DNA of 64,000 nt from Candidatus Hadarchaeota archaeon (GTDB taxonomy: Archaea > Hadarchaeota > Hadarchaeia > Hadarchaeales > JAGGTB01): contig CAYLJV010000001.1 of the NCBI GenBank assembly GCA_964384105.1, positions 586,594 to 650,593 of the forward strand, written 5' to 3'. Numbering within the stretch: the first letter of the stretch is position 1; every line of letters starts with the position of its first letter. Made by a program: the position numbers and the translations under genes. This document shows positions 3,793 to 36,170 of the stretch, in pieces. Under the pieces are notes generated by a model. That model saw only the letters and a list, made by a program, of their open reading frames with translations. It was not told the DNA's origin and did not search any database.

Positions 3793-4320
3793 ATGGTTAT
3801 TAATGTAATTAAGAGGGATGGTGAGGAAGAACCTTTTGAGAAGAATAAGATAGTTGATTCTATAGTTAATGCAGGTGCGCCAAAGAAAGTTGCAAAAGAG
3901 ATAGCATCGGAAGTTGAGGATTCGGTTGGTGAGCTCGTATCTACTGAAGAAATAAGAAATATGGTGTTGGCTAGGCTTAAGAAGAGACATAAAAAGTCGG
4001 TTGAAGAGTGGATAAATTACGAAACGGAAGAAAAAGCTAGGGCAAACGTATGTCCTTTGGCTGATATTTATCATGACGGGGAAAAGTATACCTTCAGAAT
4101 AGATCTTCCTGGTGTTTCAAAGGATGAAATAGATTTCAAGATGACAGAAAATGCTTTTTGTCTTACTGCGCCGAAGAAGGCTACTAAGTATTGCGGTTGC
4201 TGGACCTTGCATCACAAGGTTGATATTGAGAAGGCCAAGGCTAAGTTCGAGGATGGAGAATTAACTGTTACAGTGCCTTTGGTTAAGTCCCTTGAAGGAA
4301 AGAAGATCGAGATCGAATAA
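3793..4320 (+). CDS. ATP-cone domain fused to small heat-shock protein (Hsp20/alpha-crystallin domain)
   Basis: 175 aa. Residues 1-80 (MVINVIKRDGEEEPFEKNKIVDSIVNAG...EEIRNMVLARL) match the ATP-cone (NrdR/RNR N-terminal) pattern. Residues about 95-175 (ADIYHDGEKYTFRIDLPGVSKDEIDFKMTENAFCLTAP...AKAKFEDGELTVTVP) match the alpha-crystallin domain. There is a strong SD, GAGGAGGTGAAAAA, before the ATG. Confidence 0.7.
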   Translation: MVINVIKRDGEEEPFEKNKIVDSIVNAGAPKKVAKEIASEVEDSVGELVSTEEIRNMVLARLKKRHKKSVEEWINYETEEKARANVCPLADIYHDGEKYTFRIDLPGVSKDEIDFKMTENAFCLTAPKKATKYCGCWTLHHKVDIEKAKAKFEDGELTVTVPLVKSLEGKKIEIE

Positions 4321-4408: not shown

Positions 4409-5038
4409 CTAGAATATCGGTTTTCCAAGGCCATTTGAAGATGCCTCACATAGATTGTATTCAAGAACCAGTTCACCCGTCTTAGTATCATAAACTTCTA
4501 TTGTATCCTGGAAAACTACGTATTTTGGAACACCGCTTTCGTAATTTCCCATCAAGAATGGGTAAACATCACCTGCTGGATAAGCGCCTTCGTTACGATA
4601 CTCCCCCCATTTTTCTTGATTATTGCTTACTCTCATGATTTTGGCGGACTCCTTTATTCTATATCTAGTATCTGGATCAGTAGTTTGCTCATTCCATCCC
4701 GCTCTCGTTAGCCAACCGAATCTAGTCGTCACCTCATAATCATCGCTATACCAAGTGAAATGATTGAAGCACCATGCACCTATCGATGAGTCTCCTGTGG
4801 GGTTCCAGTCCTCGGACCATTTCATTACAAGCCAAGAATCCTGAGTTCCCGGAAGCCATCCTCCCTCTATCTCCATATCATAGTATCCTAGCCATCCGTT
4901 GAACAGTCTGGCCTTATAATTGAATCCGTATTCGTCGAAACCATTTCTATAATAAGTTGATTTTTCTGCTGTTGATGTTTCTATTCCTATTCCGGCAATT
5001 ACTATCAAAATTAGTCCCAGAACAAGGTATTTTTTCAT
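4409..5038 (-). CDS. Secreted or membrane-anchored hypothetical protein (Trp/Tyr-rich)
   Basis: 209 aa. The N-terminus has a hydrophobic signal/anchor (MKKYLVLGLILIVIAGIGIETSTA). I recognise no catalytic motif. Confidence 0.55.
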   Translation of the reverse strand: MKKYLVLGLILIVIAGIGIETSTAEKSTYYRNGFDEYGFNYKARLFNGWLGYYDMEIEGGWLPGTQDSWLVMKWSEDWNPTGDSSIGAWCFNHFTWYSDDYEVTTRFGWLTRAGWNEQTTDPDTRYRIKESAKIMRVSNNQEKWGEYRNEGAYPAGDVYPFLMGNYESGVPKYVVFQDTIEVYDTKTGELVLEYNLCEASSNGLGKPIF

Positions 5039-5226: not shown

Positions 5227-5973
5227 ATGAAAATTTTGCACGTTGACGACGAAGCGGATATTCTAGAACAGTCGAAGATATATCTCGAGGCGGAGGACGA
5301 TCGACTGGACGTTAGGACAGCTATCTCTGCTGAAAAGGGTTTGAAGATGTTGGAGCGGGGAGATTTCGATGCGGTAATCTCGGATTATCAAATGCCCGGC
5401 TTAAATGGCCTGGAATTTTTGGATATTATTAGAAATCAGGAAAAGAGTGACATTCCTTTTATAGTGTTTACTGGAAGAGGCAGAGAGGAAGTTGCCATTA
5501 GAGCTCTTAATCTCGGTGCAAATAGGTATATTCAAAAAGGTGGGGACCCGAAGCCTCAGTTCGTTGTTTTGGCGCGGTCAGTTGTTCAGGAAGTAGAGAG
5601 CAGACTGATGAGAAGGAGATTCAAGGATTTCTTTGAGAATCTTCCCTATATGGCATTTATTATCAATAGTTCGGGAATAGTGGAGGAGTTGAATAATTCT
5701 TTTATTCAAAGTACTGGGTACAAGAAGGAAGAGATAGTAGGAAAACCGATGGTCAGGTTAGTAAATATAATACCGTTTAAAAGTTTACTAAAGTCTGTCC
5801 GTAAATTCTACGAATTTTTACAAAACAATGAGATCTCTCCCTTTGAAATAGAATACAAACATAAAAGTGGGGAGATCCGACGTCTAGAAATTAATGCTGT
5901 TAGTATGGGTAATGACAAGGAGTTAGATCGAGTAATCGGTGTTGCTCGAGATATAACCGATGATAATGAGTAA
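5227..5973 (+). CDS. Response regulator receiver (REC) domain + PAS domain protein
   Basis: 248 aa. 'MKILHVDDEADI...DAVISDYQMPGLNGLEFL' is a CheY-like REC domain. The C-terminal half (YMAFIINSSGIVEELNNSFIQSTGYKKEEIVGKP) is PAS-like. Confidence 0.8.
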   Translation: MKILHVDDEADILEQSKIYLEAEDDRLDVRTAISAEKGLKMLERGDFDAVISDYQMPGLNGLEFLDIIRNQEKSDIPFIVFTGRGREEVAIRALNLGANRYIQKGGDPKPQFVVLARSVVQEVESRLMRRRFKDFFENLPYMAFIINSSGIVEELNNSFIQSTGYKKEEIVGKPMVRLVNIIPFKSLLKSVRKFYEFLQNNEISPFEIEYKHKSGEIRRLEINAVSMGNDKELDRVIGVARDITDDNE

Positions 5974-5998: not shown

Positions 5999-7006
5999 TT
6001 ATTTCAACCCTTCACTTATGAGGTGAAATTTTAACCCGTATTCGAGGCCTTCTAAGTATGCGGCGATGTCCACCGATCTGACTTTAGGAGCAATTTCCTT
6101 TATTTCTTGGTATTTCTTTTCCCATTCCTCTAATAGATGGTTTCTGACTCCTGAACTTTCTATTTTATCGATATCTTTTTCTTTGATCTCTTCATGCAGG
6201 CTTTCGGGAGAGATAGTTCCATTAATGACAGCGTGTCCAAATATGCCGGAGCTATAATCTCTTTCTTTAAATTCTCTTTTCCAGGTGGTTAACCAGTTTC
6301 CGATCCTGGCCATGTATTGCGATCTCCAGACTATCTCTCGGAGGAGTGGTAAGTCTTGGACTTCGAAATCCGGAGATGACATTATATCAATATCGGTTTG
6401 AGGAAATAGAACCATGTTATGTCCTCCGTATATTTTGGATTCGGTAAGATTTAGCAGGAATGGGTTATTATTTACTAATATTGAGTGATAAAAGGAGTTA
6501 AAAACCTGTTTCATATCATAACGGAATATATTTTTGAATTCTCTAAATCTAGGTAATTTTTTTATCTTTCGTTCTATTTTATCCCATAATTTGGTAGTAA
6601 ACTCTATTTCCTTTTTTTCTAGCGCTTTTTTTGTGCCGATTCTTTTTTTCGGGGTTCCTAGCTGGAATCCTATTCCGCTTTCGAACAGTTCTTCTACTTT
6701 ATAGAGGTCAGCCAAATCGTCGAAAATCGAGACAAAAAGAACCAACATGGTTTTTAGTTCGCCTAGTTCCTGAGTATATTCATCGGGTACTACCGAAAGT
6801 ACGATCCCAGGGTTTCTTTCCGTAGTAAATGTATATACCCATTTCCAGAGGAATCGTTTTCTGTCACCACATTTATCCTCGTATTCGGCTATCAGATTTT
6901 CTAATTCTCCGGGAAGTTTTCTCTCCTTTATTTTATTAACTAGTTCATCTGCCCGTTTGGACTTGGCGAACCCAATTGTTTCTTCTATTGCTCTGCTTTC
7001 TATCAT
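5999..7006 (-). CDS. Class I terpene synthase-like protein (DDxxD + NSE/DTE-like motifs)
   Basis: 335 aa. 'FDDLAD' lies at residues 95-100. 'NWLTTWKRE' lies at residues 237-245 and fits N(D)xx(S/T)xxxE at positions 1, 5 and 9. The roughly 141-aa spacing and the total length match bacterial class I terpene cyclases. There is no second DDxxD, so it is not an isoprenyl diphosphate synthase. Confidence 0.5.
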   Translation of the reverse strand: MIESRAIEETIGFAKSKRADELVNKIKERKLPGELENLIAEYEDKCGDRKRFLWKWVYTFTTERNPGIVLSVVPDEYTQELGELKTMLVLFVSIFDDLADLYKVEELFESGIGFQLGTPKKRIGTKKALEKKEIEFTTKLWDKIERKIKKLPRFREFKNIFRYDMKQVFNSFYHSILVNNNPFLLNLTESKIYGGHNMVLFPQTDIDIMSSPDFEVQDLPLLREIVWRSQYMARIGNWLTTWKREFKERDYSSGIFGHAVINGTISPESLHEEIKEKDIDKIESSGVRNHLLEEWEKKYQEIKEIAPKVRSVDIAAYLEGLEYGLKFHLISEGLK

Positions 7007-7114
7007 TTTTGTCGATCTCTCTACCTACTTAGGGCTTTTTATTTGTAAAAGAGAGGGAAACATAAGTTCGTACATGGGGTAATGTTTTTTTAAGTAGGTG
7101 CTGTAATTTCTCTT

Positions 7115-7435
7115 GTGATAGATTTGTATTTGCAGTTTCTTCCTCACTTTGGAATCGCGATAGGAGCTCTTATTCTGTTGCCATTTATTTGGCTAATAAT
7201 CGGCATTATACTTAGTATTCTCGTCTATAAAGATGCGGAGTCGAGAGGAGAAAACGGTGCTCTATGGCTTTTAGTGGTTTTAATAACAGGAATAATTGGT
7301 TTGATAATTTGGTTAATTGTGAGGCCTAGAAAAAAGCCTATAGGAAGGGAGAAAGGGGTAAAATATTGCTCGGAATGCGGTAGTAGAGTGACCGTGGGCG
7401 ATAAGTATTGTAAGGAATGTGGGAACGAGTTATAG
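7115..7435 (+). CDS. Small membrane protein with C-terminal zinc ribbon
   Basis: 106 aa. It has two predicted TM helices and the C-terminus 'KYCSECGSRVTVGDKYCKECGNEL' (CxxC-x9-CxxC). Confidence 0.5.
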   Translation: MIDLYLQFLPHFGIAIGALILLPFIWLIIGIILSILVYKDAESRGENGALWLLVVLITGIIGLIIWLIVRPRKKPIGREKGVKYCSECGSRVTVGDKYCKECGNEL

Positions 7436-7490: not shown

Positions 7491-8873
7491 TTGAATTTGA
7501 TTGGTATTATGACCGAAAAATATGATTTTATCGTTTTTGGAGGCGGTACTGGGAATAAAGTTGCTTCTTATGCTTCAAAAAGAGGTAATAAGGTAGCTCT
7601 GATCGAGCCGGGTCCTCTCGGTGGCACTTGTATAAATCGGGGATGTAATCCTTCTAAAATGCTTATTCATCATGCAGATATTCTCGATACAATCTATAAT
7701 ACAAAAAAATTTCATATTGACGCTACTGTGAATAATGTCGATTTCGGCTCGATAACTGAGGAAATAAGTGAAACATTGGGGGAGGTTGCGAGACGAATAG
7801 GGGTCCGAAAGAAAGAGGATCCAAATCTGGACCTCTACAAAGAGGAAGGTCGTTTTACTTCTGATTTTGACGTTAGAGTTGGTAGAGAGGTTATATCCGG
7901 TGATAAGGTGATTATCGCTGCGGGAAGCAGACCATTCATCCCTCCTTCGATTAATGGATTAGATAAAATCGGTTATATTACTAGTTCTGAGGCGATGTTT
8001 CTGAATGAAAGACCAGAGGAGCTAATCATCCTGGGTGGTGGATACATCGCGGCCGAGCTGGGTTATTTCTTTGGAAGAATGGGGTCTAATGTTACCATTG
8101 TTCAGAGAAGTGATCATCTTTTGTCTAGAGAAGATCGGGAGATAGCGAAGGTTTTTACGAAGATATTCTCTGACCGGTACAGTGTTTTAACGGGGAGTTC
8201 CGTTGTAGGGGCGAGGGAGATGAAAGATGGATTTTCGATTAAAATCGTGAATCGCGCAGGAAATGAAGACATTATTGAGGGTGATGAGGTACTGGTGGCC
8301 CTGGGAAGGCGGCCTAATACTGATTTGTTGGGCCTTGAAAATACAGGAATTGAAACCGATCAGAAAGGATTTATCAAAACGGACAGTCGCTTGGAGACTA
8401 CTGTGAACAATGTTTGGGCCTTGGGTGATATTGCAGGTAATTTCATGTTTAAACATTCGGCTGACTATGAAGCTAAAGTGGTTATTGATAACGCTGTAGA
8501 AGGTAGAAATAGGGTGGCTAATTACAGTGGTGTTCCTCATGCTATCTTTGCTAACCCCCAAATAGGTGCCGTTGGTTCTACCGAACAGGAGCTTAAGGAA
8601 TCTGAAACTGATTATATCAAGGGTTACGCTAAATTTCGGGATATTGCTATGTCCAGAGCACAGAAGTTTGAGCACGGTTTCGTGAAAGTGTTGGTCAGTC
8701 CAGAAAATGGCGAGATTCTTGGATGTCATATCTTGGGACATAAGGCCTCGGTTTTGATTCACGAGATCAGTCTTGCGATAAGGAATGATCTAACTTTTGA
8801 AGAAGTTGCAGATTCGATCCATGTTCATCCTACTTTGAATAAAGTTATAGAAAAGGCCTTTGAGAACTTCTAA
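7491..8873 (+). CDS. FAD-dependent pyridine nucleotide-disulfide oxidoreductase (Lpd/mercuric-reductase-like, class I)
   Basis: 460 aa. It carries 'DFIVFGGGTGN' (FAD-binding), the redox-active disulfide 'GGTCINRGCNPSK' and a C-terminal dimerisation-domain pattern including 'HPT'. Confidence 0.8.
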   Translation: MNLIGIMTEKYDFIVFGGGTGNKVASYASKRGNKVALIEPGPLGGTCINRGCNPSKMLIHHADILDTIYNTKKFHIDATVNNVDFGSITEEISETLGEVARRIGVRKKEDPNLDLYKEEGRFTSDFDVRVGREVISGDKVIIAAGSRPFIPPSINGLDKIGYITSSEAMFLNERPEELIILGGGYIAAELGYFFGRMGSNVTIVQRSDHLLSREDREIAKVFTKIFSDRYSVLTGSSVVGAREMKDGFSIKIVNRAGNEDIIEGDEVLVALGRRPNTDLLGLENTGIETDQKGFIKTDSRLETTVNNVWALGDIAGNFMFKHSADYEAKVVIDNAVEGRNRVANYSGVPHAIFANPQIGAVGSTEQELKESETDYIKGYAKFRDIAMSRAQKFEHGFVKVLVSPENGEILGCHILGHKASVLIHEISLAIRNDLTFEEVADSIHVHPTLNKVIEKAFENF

Positions 8874-9448
8874 TATTTTTCAAGATACCTGATGAATCGG
8901 TCTATCGTCTTTTTTAGACTTTTAAAACCTTCGTTGTCTTTTATTACCCCTTCTTTTGAATCCTTGCTCCAGAATGTTGCACCCAGATTTGCTCCAAATG
9001 ACCCTCCACTGACGGGAATTATTCCATTCATGATGTAGAAGGCATGTATCTGTGTTAGTGCAGTTTCTTGCCCACCTATTCTATCACCACCAACGGCTAT
9101 TCCCATTCCAATTTTCCCTTCAAGTATCCTCTGATCTTTTGCTAGAAGAGCCCTCGTTCTATCCATTACGGCTTTGAGCTTGGCAGATATTCCATTGTTG
9201 TATACGGGAGTTGCGAGTACCAAACCCTTCGATTCTTCGAGAGCAGTAAGTATCGCATTCATCCCGTCGTTGAATGTGCATTCCTCATGTTCTAGACAAT
9301 AGTCACAATGTATGCAGAAGTTTATTTTTTCTTCTCTGAGATTTATTGTAGTCACGGGATGGTTTCGTTTTTCAATCATTTCCCGGGTCTTATCGATTAC
9401 ATATTTAGTAGCTTCTTCTCTTGGGCTACTGTCTATGCATAAGATCAT
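8870..9448 (-). CDS. Iron-sulfur flavoprotein (ISF) / NADPH-dependent FMN reductase family
   Basis: 192 aa. Flavodoxin-like fold with the compact cysteine motif 'CIHCDYCLEHEEC' (Cx2Cx2Cx5C) that is characteristic of archaeal ISF. Its 3' end overlaps the convergent gene by 4 nt. Confidence 0.75.
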   Translation of the reverse strand: MILCIDSSPREEATKYVIDKTREMIEKRNHPVTTINLREEKINFCIHCDYCLEHEECTFNDGMNAILTALEESKGLVLATPVYNNGISAKLKAVMDRTRALLAKDQRILEGKIGMGIAVGGDRIGGQETALTQIHAFYIMNGIIPVSGGSFGANLGATFWSKDSKEGVIKDNEGFKSLKKTIDRFIRYLEKY

Positions 9449-9517
9449 GTGTTTACTGATTTGAATTTCATAACTAAAATACTCGCTGCCTATAACGGGT
9501 ATTTGAAAATTCCTAGC

Positions 9518-9754
9518 TTATTCAATAATAACGCTTGTGTTGGTATCGGTGACTCCTTCAACTTTGCCTATTTCCTCTATTACCACGTTCATTAGTGTGG
9601 ACATATCACTGGCTTCCGCCATTACAATTAAGTCAAAAGGTCCCGTAACAATGTGAATGTTTTTTACTCCTTCGATTTCTTCAATGCTTTCTAGTACATT
9701 TCTTACTTTTCCTACACCGGTTGTGACTAATACATATGCTTCAACCATTTTCAT
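9518..9754 (-). CDS. Stand-alone Lrp/AsnC C-terminal (RAM) domain protein
   Basis: 78 aa. 'VEAYVLVTTGVGK...VTGPFDLIVMAEASDMSTL...V' is a paralog of 408..635. Confidence 0.6.
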   Translation of the reverse strand: MKMVEAYVLVTTGVGKVRNVLESIEEIEGVKNIHIVTGPFDLIVMAEASDMSTLMNVVIEEIGKVEGVTDTNTSVIIE

Positions 9755-9958
9755 TACCTATAGTTAAGGTTTGTTTTCATTCCTTATTATTTATGATTTT
9801 GTTTTTTAATTAGGTTGCATTTAATAATATCTTTCTATATCTTTAGCTTTTCTCAATTGGTTAATAAATTTCTCAGGGATATTCTTCGTTTTTCCAAAAA
9901 TTTAAGTGTCAGATGGAAGTTAAAATTTACCACGTCCTTTTGAGTTAGGGGGGATAAA

Positions 9959-10099
9959 TTGAATGGAAATGGTAGTTGGGAGAATTTTAGCACCGAGGCC
10001 CTTTTAAAGGAAATGAAAAAATATGGGGAGGAAATTAAGAATTTAAAGGCCAGCATTTACGCTATCAAGGCCGAACTGAAAAAGAGAGACGAAATATAA
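9959..10099 (+). CDS. Possible small charged/coiled-coil protein (46 aa). It is not in the ORF track.
   Basis: A TTG start 5 nt after 'GGGGGGAT'. The translation is LNGNGSWENFSTEALLKEMKKYGEEIKNLKASIYAIKAELKKRDEI. It looks more plausible than the low-complexity antisense ORF at 9853..10056. Confidence 0.2.
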   Translation: MNGNGSWENFSTEALLKEMKKYGEEIKNLKASIYAIKAELKKRDEI

Positions 10100-10148
10100 T
10101 TTTTCTTCTACCAATTATTCTAAGAAAATTCTATTTTCGAGATTTAGT

Positions 10149-10766
10149 CTAAATATTTAAATCGATTTCTTCGACCAGTTTCTTGTATCTCTTTCTTATT
10201 TTACTGTTTAAATTGAGGAAGAGCCCTCTTGCCTTCTTTCTCTTTTCTACTTCCAAAAATCTTTTCTTGATTTTATGGCAAGATTCCTCAGTTGGTAGGT
10301 TCCAAGTAAGGTCGTACAGGTCCCTAGCAGTTGGTATTTTTCTATATTGAATCGAGTGGTTAGTTGTGGTGTAAGGTACCCGAGATCCTATTTTCTTTAT
10401 AGTTTCATTCATCAAGATAAGAGACGGGCATTTTATCCCGCTAGCTCCTAAAACAGTTTTTAAAGGATATAGTCGGCAGGCGATTGGTCTCGCAGAATAT
10501 ATCTCACAATTGTTTTCTTTTGTTAGAAAGGGGCAGGGTGAAACATGTTTTTTATAACTTATTTCGTCTTTGTCTGCTTTTCCTTCCAGGTATTCTTTTA
10601 TGAATTCTATCGGCTCCTTTTTGAGGTATTTAGATGCTTTATCAATATCTCTAAGGGACCATTCGGTTCCTAAATTACTACAACACTCGCCGCATTTGCT
10701 ACAAACGAAGGGGATTATTACATCGCCCCAACTTTTGATCCAGAAATGCTGGATTTTGAATATCAT
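10149..10766 (-). CDS. YkgJ-family putative Zn/Fe-chelating protein (CxxCxxCC motif, UPF0153)
   Basis: 205 aa. It has 'CSKCGECC' near the N-terminus and further Cys at 'CPF...C..Y..RP..CRLYP', which is typical of the PF03692 family. Confidence 0.6.
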   Translation of the reverse strand: MIFKIQHFWIKSWGDVIIPFVCSKCGECCSNLGTEWSLRDIDKASKYLKKEPIEFIKEYLEGKADKDEISYKKHVSPCPFLTKENNCEIYSARPIACRLYPLKTVLGASGIKCPSLILMNETIKKIGSRVPYTTTNHSIQYRKIPTARDLYDLTWNLPTEESCHKIKKRFLEVEKRKKARGLFLNLNSKIRKRYKKLVEEIDLNI

Positions 10767-19272: not shown

Positions 19273-20109
19273 TTAAATGAGGGCTCCTGTGAGAAACGCG
19301 ATAAGTCCGAGTCCCATCGCAATCTTGTACAGTAGGGACGCTTTACTCGCAGACTCTTTCCTCTGATTTTTCCCTATTTTGATTATTCCCCATACGAATA
19401 CTACCACCGATGCTATTACTATCAAAAGATAATATTTTTCGAATAATCCCAGTTGATAAGGCAGGGGTGTCATAAGAATTGCTAGAACTGTGAATATTAT
19501 AGCGAGAATGGCAGCCTTTCTCTTTCCAAATTGTAGAGGAAATGATTCGGATCCTGATTTTTTATCCCCCCGAACATCTTCAATGTCTTTGATTAGCTCT
19601 CTCCCAGCTGTTGAAAAGGCAGCCATTGCGGCGAGAATTCCCACGGTTTCTAAACTGCCAGCTGCTAGCCCCCCAAATAGAAAAGTTGATCCAACAAGGT
19701 AGCTTACAGCAATGTTTCCAAAAAGCCCTTTTCGCTTTAAACTAGTTGCGTAGTAGGCTAGGAGCCCAGAATTGACAACGGCTAATAGTAGGCACGAAAC
19801 TTTCCTTATAAATATCGAGGAGATTATTCCAAAAACAAAGAGCAGTATGCTTACAATGAGTGCTCCTGATGGACTTATCTTACCTGATGGAATTGGCCTA
19901 TCTGGGTTGTTTATGGCATCTAGTTTTCTATCGGCGTAATCGTTTATCGCATTGCCCGCACCGGTTATCAGACCCGCTGCGATAAGAGCAAAGGTTATTC
20001 TCGGTGGAGGTATTCCACCGGCCGAGATTATCGCACCGATCAATACAGCAATAGCTGCAAATACACAGTTATGTGGCCTAATTAGGTTGAAAACAGCCTT
20101 TAATTTCAT
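19273..20109 (-). CDS. UbiA-family prenyltransferase, digeranylgeranylglyceryl phosphate (DGGGP) synthase-like
   Basis: 278 aa with about 8 TM segments. 'NDYADRKLDAINNPDRPIPSG' is the UbiA Asp-rich motif. The size and motifs are typical of archaeal DGGGP synthase. Confidence 0.75.
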   Translation of the reverse strand: MKLKAVFNLIRPHNCVFAAIAVLIGAIISAGGIPPPRITFALIAAGLITGAGNAINDYADRKLDAINNPDRPIPSGKISPSGALIVSILLFVFGIISSIFIRKVSCLLLAVVNSGLLAYYATSLKRKGLFGNIAVSYLVGSTFLFGGLAAGSLETVGILAAMAAFSTAGRELIKDIEDVRGDKKSGSESFPLQFGKRKAAILAIIFTVLAILMTPLPYQLGLFEKYYLLIVIASVVVFVWGIIKIGKNQRKESASKASLLYKIAMGLGLIAFLTGALI

Positions 20110-20402: not shown

Positions 20403-21578
20403 ATGATTTCCGCTACAAGGGGCCCTACTCTTTTGAGCGAACAGAATCCCTTGGAACATAAACTTGGTGAAATAGCGGAGAAGATAAGAGATCAGGGTAG
20501 AAAACGCCGTTTAATAGCTAAAGTACTCCGAAACGTAAAAAATGATCTTCGTTTACCCCTAGATGAGAGGGGACTGGGGATAGTAGAATCAGACCTAGTT
20601 TACAGGGTTGAAGATTGTGTTTTGGATGATATTGTAGTGGCGGGTATAGACGGCGGGGTTTTAAATAAACCTTTACATGGGCTTGACCTTATATTGGTTA
20701 GAGCATTGGCAGCCATTTTCTCCTACGAGGATGGAAAACTCTCTGATGTAGACTACCACCCGAGTGAGATGCCCACTCCAGATTTAGTAAATGTTCATGA
20801 ACCCCTAGATTCGAGGGAAATCGATATTTTAGTTGGTTTAAAGAGGCAGATTTCCGAGATTGATAGAGCTCGGGAAACCGCCCAAAAGAAGGATGTCGAT
20901 GTTATCATGCTAGATGGTTCCGTTGTTCCTCAGTACACTAATAATGTTAGAGGCGAAATGACTCGGGAGCTCTACAAAAAGCTGATCTATTCTTACAGGG
21001 ATTTATATCAACTATGCGAAAAAAAGGAGATTCTACTTCTTGGAGCGGTAAAAGATAGCAGAAGTGCCAGGTTAGCAAAGCTATTTCAAAAAAAGATTTT
21101 CCCGAAGCTTGTAGAGGAAATGGATCTTTCCGTTGATGAATTGGATTCTATAGATAGGAACAGTGATATACTTCTTATCTCGAGGGATACGGATTTCTTG
21201 GACTATTTATTGGATGCCAAAGAGAGAAGCTTCACGTTCAAATATTCAGAATCTTCTGCCCCTCTTCTGAATGATCTTGGTGAATGGAAGGAGAGTATAT
21301 ACGCTTTCTACGTTAAACCTGTGCCGTACGACTGCCCGGTTAGAGTGGAATTCGTTAGTGATCAAAAAAGCGTTTTAGAAAGTGCAGAAAAATCCGCTGC
21401 ACTTGTCAGCACTCTCTCGGCCAATCATGATGCTTGCGCGTTGCCATCTGTTTTGATAGAAGCGGATGCTCGGGCCGCCCTAGCTGAAGAGGAAATATCA
21501 ATACTCAGGGACAGTATCGTAGACAGGTTGGAACCGTCTACCCTGGTGGAACTGCGGAGAGAAAGGAGGCCTTTCTAA
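20403..21578 (+). CDS. nurA: NurA-like 5'-3' nuclease
   Basis: 391 aa. It has an 'IDGG' motif and a second 'MLDGS' motif typical of the NurA catalytic core. Its stop shares 1 nt with the herA start (TAATG). Confidence 0.6.
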   Translation: MISATRGPTLLSEQNPLEHKLGEIAEKIRDQGRKRRLIAKVLRNVKNDLRLPLDERGLGIVESDLVYRVEDCVLDDIVVAGIDGGVLNKPLHGLDLILVRALAAIFSYEDGKLSDVDYHPSEMPTPDLVNVHEPLDSREIDILVGLKRQISEIDRARETAQKKDVDVIMLDGSVVPQYTNNVRGEMTRELYKKLIYSYRDLYQLCEKKEILLLGAVKDSRSARLAKLFQKKIFPKLVEEMDLSVDELDSIDRNSDILLISRDTDFLDYLLDAKERSFTFKYSESSAPLLNDLGEWKESIYAFYVKPVPYDCPVRVEFVSDQKSVLESAEKSAALVSTLSANHDACALPSVLIEADARAALAEEEISILRDSIVDRLEPSTLVELRRERRPF

Positions 21579-23110
21579 TGGGTTCCGAGATCGGAACGGT
21601 TATATGCACGCCGGATGGACCTTCGGCTAACAAGTTTTCGTTTGTGGTAACCAATACTAATGGCGAAATTCCAGTTAGAAGGGGACAGTTTATCGAGTTA
21701 AAGAGTGCTGAGGGAAAGATGATCGCCCAGGTTCAGAATATAATGAAGACCAACCGGTATTTCATGCGCCCTGAATCCGTAAAGGAATATGAAAAGGGAA
21801 GAAATTCTTTAAATTCAATCTTCCCGGCGGACCGATGGGAGTATATAGTGGCAGATGCAAGGGCCTCAGGAATCCAAACGGAGACTGGCTTAGAACAGGT
21901 AACGTTTCCAACTGCTCCAGGTGATAAGGTCTACGAGGCCAGCAGAGAAACACTCTCTCGATTCCTCGGCATCGATGAGAATGGTGGTGTGGATTTGGGA
22001 AAACTTCGATACCATGATCTTCCCGCGAAGCTTGACCTAACGAAGCTCCTGAGAAAGCACGTGGCCGTTTTAGCTATGAGTGGTGCGGGTAAGAGCTATA
22101 GCGCTTCCGTCCTCATAGAGGAACTTCTCGAGAGAAGTAAGGAACGGGGGAGGGTAGCTACGATAGTTGCTGACGTTCATGGGGAGTATACATCTCTGGC
22201 AAAATCTAATTCCAGTGGTGTGGATTACTCGGACAAGGTGACTCTCATAAGGGGGGAGAACGTGAAGATCGGCGTTCCGAACATGAGTGCTTACCGCTTT
22301 AGAGAATTTACCCGGGATATGTCGGGAAGTCAGACCAGAGAACTGAACCGGGTTTTGGGTAAATTAAATTCCAAGATGAGATCCGGTGGTGGATTATATG
22401 ATCTGGATGACGTGATATCCAAGGTCGAGGAAAACGGCGAATCGAATAAGCAGTTGAGAAGAGCGTTGTTAGATAGACTTTACGATTTGAAGAACCTGAA
22501 TATTTTTGGTAACAGCGATTACCCCAGCTGGAAGGAACTAGCGAAGCCCGGTAGAGCGGCTATCTTGGACCTTAGCAGAATATTCAGTCTACGCAAGAAA
22601 AGAATAATCCTAACTTATTTTGCCAGGAAGCTTTTCAACAAAAGAAAGTCAGGACAAGCCCCACCCTTCGCATTCTTCGTAGAGGAAGCTCATCAATTTG
22701 CACCCTCTAAAAAATCGGTAATTTCCAGTTCGATCCTTAAGACCATCGCCAGGGAGGGTCGTAAGTTCTACGCGTCTCTTGTTTTGGTAAGTCAACGGCC
22801 CGTTCGGCTTTCTACCACGGTCCTTTCACAGGCCAATACCAACATAATTCTGAGAGTAACCAATCCTTACGATTTGGATCATATCAAAAAGTCCTCCGAG
22901 AGTATAACGAAGGATACGGCCGATATTATTTCCTCTCTTCCGGTAGGACAGGCTTTGGTTGTTGGTGAAGCGGTAAACCATCCTGTTTTCATAAAGGTTC
23001 GAAAAAGAAAATCCAAGGAAGCGGAACACGGAACTGGACTTGAAGAAGTTGCAAAAAGGTACGAGGAAAAGAGAGACCAGGAAAAAGAAGACGTTGATGC
23101 CTTCATGTGA
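21578..23110 (+). CDS. herA: HerA-like hexameric ATPase/helicase (FtsK-HerA superfamily)
   Basis: 510 aa. It has an N-terminal HAS-barrel-like region, Walker A 'AMSGAGKSYSAS', Walker B 'FFVEEAHQF' and 'LVSQRP...NTNIILRVTNPYD'. GGAGG lies 8 nt upstream of the ATG. Confidence 0.8.
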   Translation: MGSEIGTVICTPDGPSANKFSFVVTNTNGEIPVRRGQFIELKSAEGKMIAQVQNIMKTNRYFMRPESVKEYEKGRNSLNSIFPADRWEYIVADARASGIQTETGLEQVTFPTAPGDKVYEASRETLSRFLGIDENGGVDLGKLRYHDLPAKLDLTKLLRKHVAVLAMSGAGKSYSASVLIEELLERSKERGRVATIVADVHGEYTSLAKSNSSGVDYSDKVTLIRGENVKIGVPNMSAYRFREFTRDMSGSQTRELNRVLGKLNSKMRSGGGLYDLDDVISKVEENGESNKQLRRALLDRLYDLKNLNIFGNSDYPSWKELAKPGRAAILDLSRIFSLRKKRIILTYFARKLFNKRKSGQAPPFAFFVEEAHQFAPSKKSVISSSILKTIAREGRKFYASLVLVSQRPVRLSTTVLSQANTNIILRVTNPYDLDHIKKSSESITKDTADIISSLPVGQALVVGEAVNHPVFIKVRKRKSKEAEHGTGLEEVAKRYEEKRDQEKEDVDAFM

Positions 23111-35273: not shown

Positions 35274-36170
35274 ATGGATTATAAACGTCTTTTAAGAATT
35301 TTCCTAGTGCCCGGCCTGCTTTTAAAGTCGCGTGTTCGGGTGATTGTGGGGTTTACCTCTTATGCTTTGTTGGGATTAGTCATAACGATATTAGTCGGAA
35401 ATAACCTATCTTTATCTAGTATCTGGATAAATGTTCTGTTTTTAGGAATTGCGTGGGTCTTTCTTTCTGCTGGAGTTTATGTATTAAATGATATCTGTGA
35501 TATTAGCCTAGATAAGATAAGTGAATCTGAGCGGCCGCTTGTTACTAACGATATAACCAAAAATGAAGCTATTGTTGCAGTTATCGCGTTTCTCTCCTTG
35601 TCTTTTATCTTCTCTGCTCAATTAGGTCTCTTAACACTGCTTATATTCCTGACTTGTATGGGATTGGGTATAGTTTACTCCATTCCTCCAATTCACCTTA
35701 AAAGGAGGATATTTGGTAAACAACTTACTCTCGGTATAAGTGCAGCTCTTTCGATACTTGCTGGTGGAAGCGCTTTTGGGTATTTCCCCTCGGTTCTTAT
35801 CTATGCTATTCTAGTTATATTTCCGTTCATGTCGATATCCACGGTAATTGCGGATCTGAAAGATATAAAGGCCGATACTTCGGCAGATTATAGAACTCTT
35901 GCAATTGCTTTAGGAGCTAAGAAATCAATAGATTTGGCCATATATGGACTAGTAGCTATGATTGGGTTAGCAGTTCCTGGTGTTATCTACTTTAACTTAA
36001 ATCCAGCCTTTCTTTTGATAATCCTCCCTCTTTTAGGGTTAAATCTCAAGAGATACTTAGAATTTCGGAATTCTAATGTTGATTGGGGTGAATATAAGAA
36101 ACTACTAATGTTGCATAAAATTTCGGGACCACTCTTCCAATTAGGGATAGTAATTGGTTTGATCTTTTGA
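35274..36170 (+). CDS. UbiA-family prenyltransferase (second paralog)
   Basis: 298 aa with about 8-9 TM segments. 'VYVLNDICDISLDKISESERPLV' is the UbiA Asp-rich motif NDxxDxxxD. Confidence 0.7.
   Translation: MDYKRLLRIFLVPGLLLKSRVRVIVGFTSYALLGLVITILVGNNLSLSSIWINVLFLGIAWVFLSAGVYVLNDICDISLDKISESERPLVTNDITKNEAIVAVIAFLSLSFIFSAQLGLLTLLIFLTCMGLGIVYSIPPIHLKRRIFGKQLTLGISAALSILAGGSAFGYFPSVLIYAILVIFPFMSISTVIADLKDIKADTSADYRTLAIALGAKKSIDLAIYGLVAMIGLAVPGVIYFNLNPAFLLIILPLLGLNLKRYLEFRNSNVDWGEYKKLLMLHKISGPLFQLGIVIGLIF

Follow-up and report, generated by a model that had tools for sequence, protein, structure and literature searches.

Bacterial class I terpene synthases (PF19086; e.g., selinadiene synthase 4OKM, 10-epi-cubebol synthase 7ZRN and hydropyrene synthase 8B4L) consist of a single alpha domain of ~300 to 340 amino acids (aa), in which a DDxx(D/E) motif lies ~140 residues ahead of an NxxxTxx(R/K)E triad. 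In archaea, three terpene synthases have been verified by activity in yeast and in vitro (A0A0E3NXY0, A0A537EJD0 and the beta-bisabolol synthase A0A5E4I9B1), and terpene synthases have been predicted in 1,646 to 2,867 archaeal taxa (Samusevich et al., doi 10.1101/2024.01.29.577750). All the experimental proof of archaeal terpene cyclisation comes from this one recent preprint. Here we describe a gene found in a stretch of 64,000 nucleotides of a Candidatus Hadarchaeota archaeon (contig CAYLJV010000001.1, positions 586,594 to 650,593; the whole stretch is called the window from here on). Its 335-aa product has the motifs and the predicted fold of a class I terpene synthase, and it comes from a large clade whose genes are located at, or fused to, signalling proteins and isoprenoid enzymes in many archaea and bacteria. 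A preliminary description of the same DNA had recognized the resemblance to terpene synthases but considered archaeal terpene cyclases poorly described, a view that the numbers given above do not sustain. A terpene-synthase-like protein in an archaeon is not unprecedented; what is new is the signature of the clade, its link to signalling and its fusions to receivers and to a degenerate DXS.

Comparison with described synthases

The window protein is soluble and, like the bacterial enzymes, a single alpha domain without any fused partner. The preliminary description had located FDDLAD at residues 95 to 100 and NWLTTWKRE at residues 237 to 245, ~140 residues apart, and both motifs are indeed there, with a DD-to-NSE distance of 141 residues. 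It had also argued against an isoprenyl diphosphate synthase from the lack of a second DDxxD, and the whole sequence does contain a single DD dipeptide; synthases that form farnesyl diphosphate (FPP) or geranylgeranyl diphosphate (GGPP), of the polyprenyl_synt type, carry a pair of DDxxD motifs and lack an NSE triad. The shape of the second motif, N-x-L-x-(S/T)-aromatic-x-(R/K)-E, matches the NDLFSYQRE-type motifs of bacteria. However, identity to the bacterial synthases is only 6 to 12%, and the window protein scores under all Pfam thresholds. They carry Asp at the second position of the NSE motif, whereas the present family has Trp or Leu, and in place of their RY pair and of an Arg at −46 we find invariant R49, R223, D164 and D250 and a C-terminal G-L-K. 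The pocket of the present family is nearly invariant across phyla, and its genes are found beside signalling genes and not in P450 and tailoring clusters.

The verified archaeal synthases are also single alpha domains that escape the standard Pfam and InterPro thresholds. Compared by motif strings, they share with the window protein the DDXXD motif and, between NTLNTWPRE and NWLTTWKRE, the residues N, L, T, W, R and E, although 154 residues separate the DD and NSE motifs there. An N-terminal Arg stands ~43 to 47 residues ahead of the DD motif in these enzymes, as in the window protein; in A0A5E4I9B1 it is the functional R24, 43 residues ahead of DDXXD (doi 10.1101/2024.01.29.577750). Haloarchaeal members of the present family, with the string IGNWLTTWERE, appear in the list of uncharacterised signature-bearing sequences of that study (doi 10.1101/2024.01.29.577750), which makes no mention of signalling neighbours or fusions. 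A protein search seeded with NTLNTWPRE recovered only known family members, and a degenerate DNA pattern for the same motif found nothing in metagenome contigs. The literature that we searched on receiver fusions and on planctomycete, Patescibacteria and haloarchaeal terpene synthases contained nothing on the clade signature, the signalling link or the fusions to receivers and pseudo-DXS domains.

Conservation of the motifs and predicted fold

A search of 5.8 billion proteins returned 29 relatives with 31 to 43% identity, coming from metagenomes, haloarchaea (Natronomonas, Natrinema, Salinilacihabitans) and one Candidatus Berkelbacteria genome; one of them is labelled “terpene synthase family protein” at NCBI. 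The closest genomic relative, in a Methanohalobium metagenome-assembled genome (MAG), is 45% identical. When 1.84 billion cluster representatives were searched with a profile, the family grew to 822 members at E ≤ 1e-3, 490 of them at E ≤ 1e-30, and a profile word-index search added three further members (P0030-P0033) and no distant relatives.

We aligned the window protein with 181 relatives from archaea and bacteria (182 sequences, with a mutual identity of at most 50%). In the Asp-rich motif, D96 is kept in 181 sequences, D97 in 182 and D/E100 in 180, and the NSE motif is similarly constant (N237 in 182, T/S241 in 181, W242 in 177, R244 in 178 and E245 in 181). Upstream, the N-terminal Arg/Trp box retains R49 in 181, W54 in 177 and W56 in 170 sequences; elsewhere R223 (181), D164 (179), D250 (180), W295 (176) and, to a lesser degree, K335 (134) are conserved. 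Altogether, the six metal ligands and the three arginines are present in 178 to 182 of the 182 representatives, and the family can be recognized by the signature RDRFLWKW ... DDxx(D/E) ... IGN[WL][LIV][ST]TWxRE ... C-terminal G-L-K. By analogy with known enzymes, DDLAD would bind Mg2+ (MgA and MgC), and N237, T241 and E245, together with R244, would bind MgB and the diphosphate. The RKRFLWKW box of the window protein, 47 residues ahead of the DD motif, may correspond in function to the N-terminal Arg or RxR element of plant-type synthases.

Searches with the window protein against Pfam, NCBIfam and PDB sequences gave noise only, as did those with the 30-sequence profile against PDB sequences. 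At the level of family models, the window protein has no terpene synthase match in Pfam even at E ≤ 10 and stays below the cut-offs of PF19086 and PF03936, so that on this point the preliminary description is borne out only through the homologs. PF19086 (Terpene_syn_C_2) matches 23 of the 30 aligned members at E ≤ 0.1 (best E 4.5e-8) and PF03936 matches nine. Three members exceed the PF19086 cut-off of 23.7 bits (P0027 with 33.5, P0020 with 27.9 and P0011 with 27.6), in alignments that cover positions 4 to 191 of the 199 of the profile with both motifs in register. The window protein thus belongs, as a divergent sequence, to a clade that is not curated, and its Pfam membership holds at the family level by transitivity and not for this sequence directly. 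The model obtained with AlphaFold2 from the 30-sequence alignment is all-helical, with a mean pLDDT of 89.9 and a pTM of 0.89, and has the predicted all-alpha fold of class I terpenoid synthases. All of the 50 matches listed by Foldseek against the PDB were class I terpene synthases, among them hydropyrene, 10-epi-cubebol, aristolochene, epi-isozizaene, 2-methylisoborneol and taxadiene synthases. No other family gave a better match, and the DD and NSE residues, kept in 180 to 182 of the 182 sequences, did not prove variable among orthologs. Near-invariance in 182 relatives and the predicted fold together establish that the motifs are real, and the class I assignment made in the preliminary description is supported at the levels of fold, family model and motif conservation.

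Association with signalling genes

Gene neighbourhoods were compared at 80 loci from GTDB species genomes, mostly Halobacteria and also Methanosarcinales, Thermoplasmata, Nanoarchaeota, Patescibacteria (Paceibacterota, Saccharibacteria, Berkelbacteria) and Anaerolineae. A signalling protein was located within 1.5 kb of the synthase-like gene at 64 of the 80 loci, a count that includes related genomes and is not phylogenetically independent. Signalling genes accounted for 41 to 42% of the flank segments at 0 to 3 kb versus 2 to 3% at 4.5 to 7.5 kb. The 43 neighbours called as open reading frames (ORFs) included 29 Bat-like regulators (PAS-GAF-BAT-HTH_10) and 13 to 14 PAS-HisKA-HATPase kinases, seven of which have a seven-transmembrane sensor region. 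The arrangement depends on the lineage. In Haloarcula-type genomes the regulator and the synthase-like gene share a strand and flank a HalOD1 gene, and in Halorubrum-type genomes the regulator is divergent; in Patescibacteria a kinase overlaps the synthase-like gene by 1 to 4 nucleotides, in Methanohalobium a kinase follows 194 nucleotides downstream, and at one archaeal locus a FIST sensor protein overlaps the synthase-like gene. These lineage-specific arrangements argue against simple inherited synteny, and because they differ across phyla, and because fusions also occur, they give independent support to the link with signalling. The association is frequent and not universal, since no signalling neighbour was present in the contexts of P0012 and P0033. 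The HalOD1 (halobacterial output domain 1) proteins are ~100 aa long and stand between the Bat-like and the synthase-like genes in at least 10 loci (L031:7239-7535 and equivalents).

In the window, the neighbour is a response regulator with a receiver and a PAS domain, convergent with the synthase-like gene, the stop codons of the two being only 25 bp apart. Read from its sequence, the receiver is intact (acidic pair D7-D8, phospho-acceptor D53, T81 and K103). The synthase-like protein has no receiver of its own, and the REC-PAS protein is probably its regulatory partner, encoded by a separate gene. Full-length homologs of this REC-PAS protein (30 to 35% identity) are found directly beside the synthase-like gene at three haloarchaeal loci (L011, L014 and L029), at the first of which the neighbour has a REC-PAS-HisKA-HATPase architecture. 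At another locus (L073) the homolog is ~1.5 kb downstream, and in L005 it is ~5 kb upstream on the opposite strand and not adjacent. The preliminary description had correctly placed the gene among redox and two-component genes, as the REC-PAS and flavin/redox genes that flank the ORF confirm, but the two-component neighbour is more than the background that it was taken for, the link to signalling being a conserved feature of the family.

Fusions and bacterial operons

Among the matches listed, 54 of ~150 representatives have an N-terminal extension, and the synthase-like domain is always C-terminal. The partner is DXS/transketolase-like in 38 of the 54 and groups with receivers (REC, REC-PilZ or REC-HalX) in nine, five of which are recognized as REC by Pfam. 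One protein each carries a geranylgeranyl-reductase (GGR)-like domain (P0046), a fragment of HMG-CoA reductase (P0137) and a DHBP synthase (P0094), and the remaining four N-terminal parts fell into no group. A DXS that is still fully recognisable is found in P0097/P0182 (Phycisphaerae, GenBank HUU98814.1, several contigs), and Pfam detects full DXS domains in only three of the 54 fusion proteins. All 18 DXS-like fusions that were aligned to the intact P0097 have lost the GDG..N thiamine-diphosphate, AEQH and DRAG..DGPTH motifs. These degenerate domains (P0125, P0154, P0135 and 15 others) retain the full length and the transketolase C-terminal fold and, judged by the loss of these motifs, they are pseudo-enzymes that make up a pseudo-DXS family. 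The motif positions of the synthase domain, on the other hand, are invariant or at least 90% conserved throughout the 54 fusions.

The bacterial operons combine the two themes, signalling and isoprenoid metabolism. At a Phycisphaerae locus (L083) the order is a weak-GGDEF protein, DXS::synthase-like, an FAD oxidoreductase, IspH (LytB), a HAMP kinase and a REC-HATPase. L086 has a pseudo-DXS::synthase-like gene (8001-10586), a HAMP hybrid kinase of 1035 aa, a REC-HATPase and a REC-kinase-REC, followed by IspH on the opposite strand. In L081, a REC and a REC::PilZ::synthase-like fusion are followed by a HAMP hybrid kinase of 1030 aa, a REC-HATPase and an FAD oxidoreductase; a second FAD protein is common to this locus and to the haloarchaeal REC-HalX fusion locus (L073). 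In two MAGs, one of Methanosarcinales (L065) and one of Saccharibacteria (L077), a GGR-like reductase overlaps the synthase-like gene. On one metagenomic contig with a REC::synthase-like fusion (L085:1-5988), contractile-tail genes were found immediately upstream, coding for a sheath, a pair of T4 gp19-like tube proteins and a P2 gpI-like baseplate protein.

Bifunctional fusions that join precursor supply to cyclisation are known from fungi, where prenyltransferase-cyclases such as fusicoccadiene synthase carry both activities. The present fusions resemble them in that a domain with the synthase fold is joined to an upstream isoprenoid enzyme (DXS, HMG-CoA reductase or geranylgeranyl reductase). 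However, the fungal partner is a prenyltransferase, whereas here it is an enzyme from the start of the methylerythritol phosphate or mevalonate pathway, or a reductase; the 18 aligned DXS-like parts are all without catalytic motifs, and the window protein is unfused. Response regulators with an enzymatic output, such as the REC-GGDEF protein PleD and the REC-methylesterase CheB, offer another parallel. In relatives of the window protein, a REC, REC-PilZ or REC-HalX is placed ahead of the synthase domain within kinase operons, whereas the window encodes its receiver in a convergent gene of its own. A terpene-synthase-fold output domain of a response regulator was not found in the literature searched.

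Possible roles: catalysis, sensing and other activities

On balance, and with reserve, we lean towards a Mg-dependent enzyme that ionises a prenyl diphosphate, works together with signal transduction and makes one specific terpenoid. The ORF, the motifs with their conservation, the fold, the gene neighbourhoods and the fusions are established by the analysis, as is a complete and strongly conserved residue set that corresponds to the Mg3-diphosphate site of known synthases; metal and substrate binding, catalysis, type of product and regulatory coupling are what we infer. Two facing helices would hold three Mg2+ ions, one helix through D96, D97 and D100 and the other through N237, T241 and E245. 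Together with R49, R223 and R244, these ions would clamp the diphosphate of the substrate, most plausibly FPP or GGPP in an archaeon. Ionisation would leave an allylic carbocation in a pocket lined by Trp and Tyr (W54, W56, W141, W242 and W295), to be cyclised or quenched into one specific terpene or terpene alcohol. Activity or expression would be under two-component or Bat-type control, here probably through the adjacent REC-PAS response regulator and in the relatives through Bat-like regulators, histidine kinases of the PAS or HAMP type, or receivers fused ahead of the synthase domain. Catalysis is favoured because the synthase domain takes the output position behind receivers, because IspH and the GGR-type reductases look like partners for supply and tailoring, because all the ionisation residues have been retained while the fused DXS decays, and because activity is known for single-domain synthases of archaea whose motifs are very similar.

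Several observations weigh against this interpretation. The window protein itself matches no Pfam or NCBIfam model, and we found no assayed member of the clade in the literature searched. The canonical Asp at the second NSE position is replaced, the C-terminal RY pair of bacteria is absent (the sole RY, residues 162 and 163, is upstream of the NSE) and no Arg is conserved near residue 191, where a sensor 46 residues ahead of the NSE would be expected. The REC-PAS gene is convergent and so is not co-transcribed with the synthase-like gene, and no prenyl-diphosphate synthase or tailoring gene adjoins the ORF. Most of the DXS-like partners are dead and are found within kinase operons, which suits a sensor. 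Finally, a pocket nearly frozen over two domains of life is atypical of terpene synthases, whose pockets usually diversify, and is as compatible with one housekeeping or sensing role as with catalysis.

The clearest rival, which we consider unlikely, is a non-catalytic sensor that binds isopentenyl or dimethylallyl diphosphate, FPP or GGPP through the Mg motifs without turnover and reports the isoprenoid status to its signalling partners, for feedback on isoprenoid or lipid synthesis. Such a receptor would account for the linkage to kinases and regulators, which is tight and found in many lineages, for the 18 pseudo-DXS partners that are joined to the synthase-like domain just upstream of HAMP kinases, for fusions to the enzymes that control flux in the two precursor pathways (DXS and HMG-CoA reductase) and for the unusual uniformity of the pocket across phyla. 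Moreover, binding requires the same conserved residues as catalysis, so that the two functions cannot be separated by sequence. However, fusion to a receiver leaves the domain at the C-terminal end, in the place of an output and not of an input, the GGR-like reductases and IspH of the same operons resemble biosynthetic partners, and the full set of ionisation residues is kept without drift in ~99% of the members. We know of no sensor with a terpene synthase fold. Transfer of the prenyl cation to another nucleophile, as in DabA, which N-prenylates glutamate, or its release as farnesol or geranylgeraniol by a diphosphatase of the same fold seems to us improbable. The match to DabA speaks for it, as do the GGR-like reductases that adjoin the gene in several lineages and a DUF92 membrane protein that does so in Methanohalobium; the last two would fit a cycle of prenol release, reduction and re-phosphorylation, and farnesol has been reported as a regulator of isoprenoid synthesis in a haloarchaeon. 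Against it, we identified no feature for acceptor binding and the DUF92 neighbour occurs at one locus only. This DUF92 protein (L001:3175-4554, minus strand) is a 459-aa membrane protein with DUF92 at its C-terminus and 230 N-terminal residues that fall into no family; its gene and the window protein's closest genomic homolog are divergent. The plant phytyl-phosphate kinase VTE6 belongs to the DUF92 family.

The other two possibilities can be given much less weight than catalysis by a terpene synthase under regulatory control. Archaea need chain-elongating isoprenyl diphosphate synthases and squalene/phytoene-type synthases, and the gene could in principle code for one of them. This is very hard to reconcile with a single Asp-rich motif and an invariant NSE triad in place of the second, with the lack of any Pfam match to polyprenyl_synt or SQS_PSY, both for the window protein and for 30 homologs, and with the two fold searches, in both of which terpene synthases ranked above isoprenyl diphosphate and squalene/phytoene-type synthases. 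As for a mere coincidence of motifs in an unrelated helical protein, 50,000 composition-preserving shuffles of the protein contained DDxx[DE] in 12.5% of cases, the loose [ND]xxx[ST]xxxE in 29.7% and the pair 120 to 160 residues apart in 0.3%. The last figure would amount to a few chance cases per genome, so the motif pair needed support from conservation and fold; the lack of a direct Pfam match for the window protein also speaks for coincidence. That support was found: the near-invariance of the motifs in 182 relatives, the homologs above the PF19086 cut-off with both motifs in register and the fold search refute the coincidence, to which we assign a practically negligible probability.

Genomic setting in the window

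The gene, its motifs and the other features of the window are listed in Table 1. The archaeal context claimed in the preliminary description is evident from an RFC small subunit (510 bits against a cut-off of 303), CDC48, HerA, a sulfide-dependent thiazole synthase (Thi4) and a DGGGP-synthase-like UbiA; there are no tRNA or Rfam matches within the 64 kb. FMN reductases, a rhodanese protein and an ATP-cone-Hsp20 protein are also found near the ORF. The adjacent pyridine-nucleotide-disulphide oxidoreductase was considered as a conserved partner and discarded, as it had a single weak match at the other loci (in L043). The preliminary description had likewise pointed to two UbiA prenyltransferases. 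Both are present, but at 12 and 28 kb from the ORF there is no evidence for a cluster; a UbiA gene cluster is ruled out by these distances and by one of the two being DGGGP-synthase-like, probably a membrane-lipid enzyme.

Table 1. Coordinates of the synthase-like gene, its motifs and other features within the window
Feature	Position	Strand	Remarks
Class I terpene-synthase-fold protein gene	5999..7006	−	ATG start, 335 aa
DDLAD, residues 96-100	6707-6721	−	Asp-rich motif; predicted helix 75-102
NWLTTWKRE, residues 237-245	6272-6298	−	NSE-type triad N237/T241/E245 plus R244; predicted helix 216-247
RKRFLWKW, residues 49-56	6839..6862	−	N-terminal Arg/Trp box; family consensus RDRFLWKW
Response regulator, receiver + PAS	5227..5973	+	248 aa; Pfam Response_reg 4.3e-22, PAS_9 3e-13
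Divergent intergenic region (presumed promoter)	7007..7114	.	108 bp, AT-rich; TATA-like stretch ttttacaaataaaaa ~30-48 nt upstream of ATG
Zinc-ribbon membrane protein	7115..7435	+	106 aa; two hydrophobic segments, C-terminal zinc ribbon; divergent from the synthase-like gene
Pyridine-nucleotide-disulphide oxidoreductase	7491..8873		460 aa; adjacent to the synthase-like gene
ATP-cone-Hsp20 protein	3793..4320	+	175 aa; ATP-cone (residues 3-77), Hsp20/alpha-crystallin (92-174)
Protein with signal-peptide-like N-terminus	4409..5038	−	209 aa; Trp/Tyr/Gly-rich, no Pfam family
UbiA, DGGGP-synthase-like	19273..20109	−	NF009521, 290 bits vs cut-off 296
Second UbiA	35274..36170	+	Generic UbiA models only, 84 bits
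Gene pair with HerA-like ATPase	20403..23110	+	391-aa protein without NCBIfam match, then overlapping 510-aa HerA-like ATPase, well below equivalog cut-offs

Other genes of the window deserve a comment in their own right. The pairing of an ATP-cone with an Hsp20/alpha-crystallin domain is unusual, and on a small heat-shock protein the ATP-cone would be a nucleotide-sensing module. The gene pair that includes the HerA-like ATPase may be of the NurA/HerA type or associated with defence.

Implications for the family

The clade is tied repeatedly to kinases, receivers, cyclic di-GMP-binding PilZ domains and Bat-type regulators, and its fusion partners include gate-keeping enzymes of both isoprenoid precursor pathways. 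We put forward, tentatively and with more doubt than conviction, that the terpene-synthase-fold domain is an unrecognised signalling module of prokaryotes, found in archaea, candidate-phyla bacteria and planctomycetes, that acts either as a controlled output or as an input sensing prenyl diphosphates, with the REC-PAS and synthase-like pair of the window as its split archaeal version. As an output, the module would be controlled by response regulators or kinases and make a terpenoid dedicated to carrying a message or to modulating the membrane; as an input, it would couple isoprenoid status to two-component and Bat-type regulation. If the family is enzymatic, its product would be a regulated and conserved terpenoid that could serve as messenger or as stress lipid, and the domain would represent a novel type of response-regulator output. 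If they are sensors, they would be the first receptors with a terpene synthase fold and would provide a mechanism for the feedback control of isoprenoid flux. The hosts of the family include cultured haloarchaea such as Haloarcula, Halorubrum and Natrinema.

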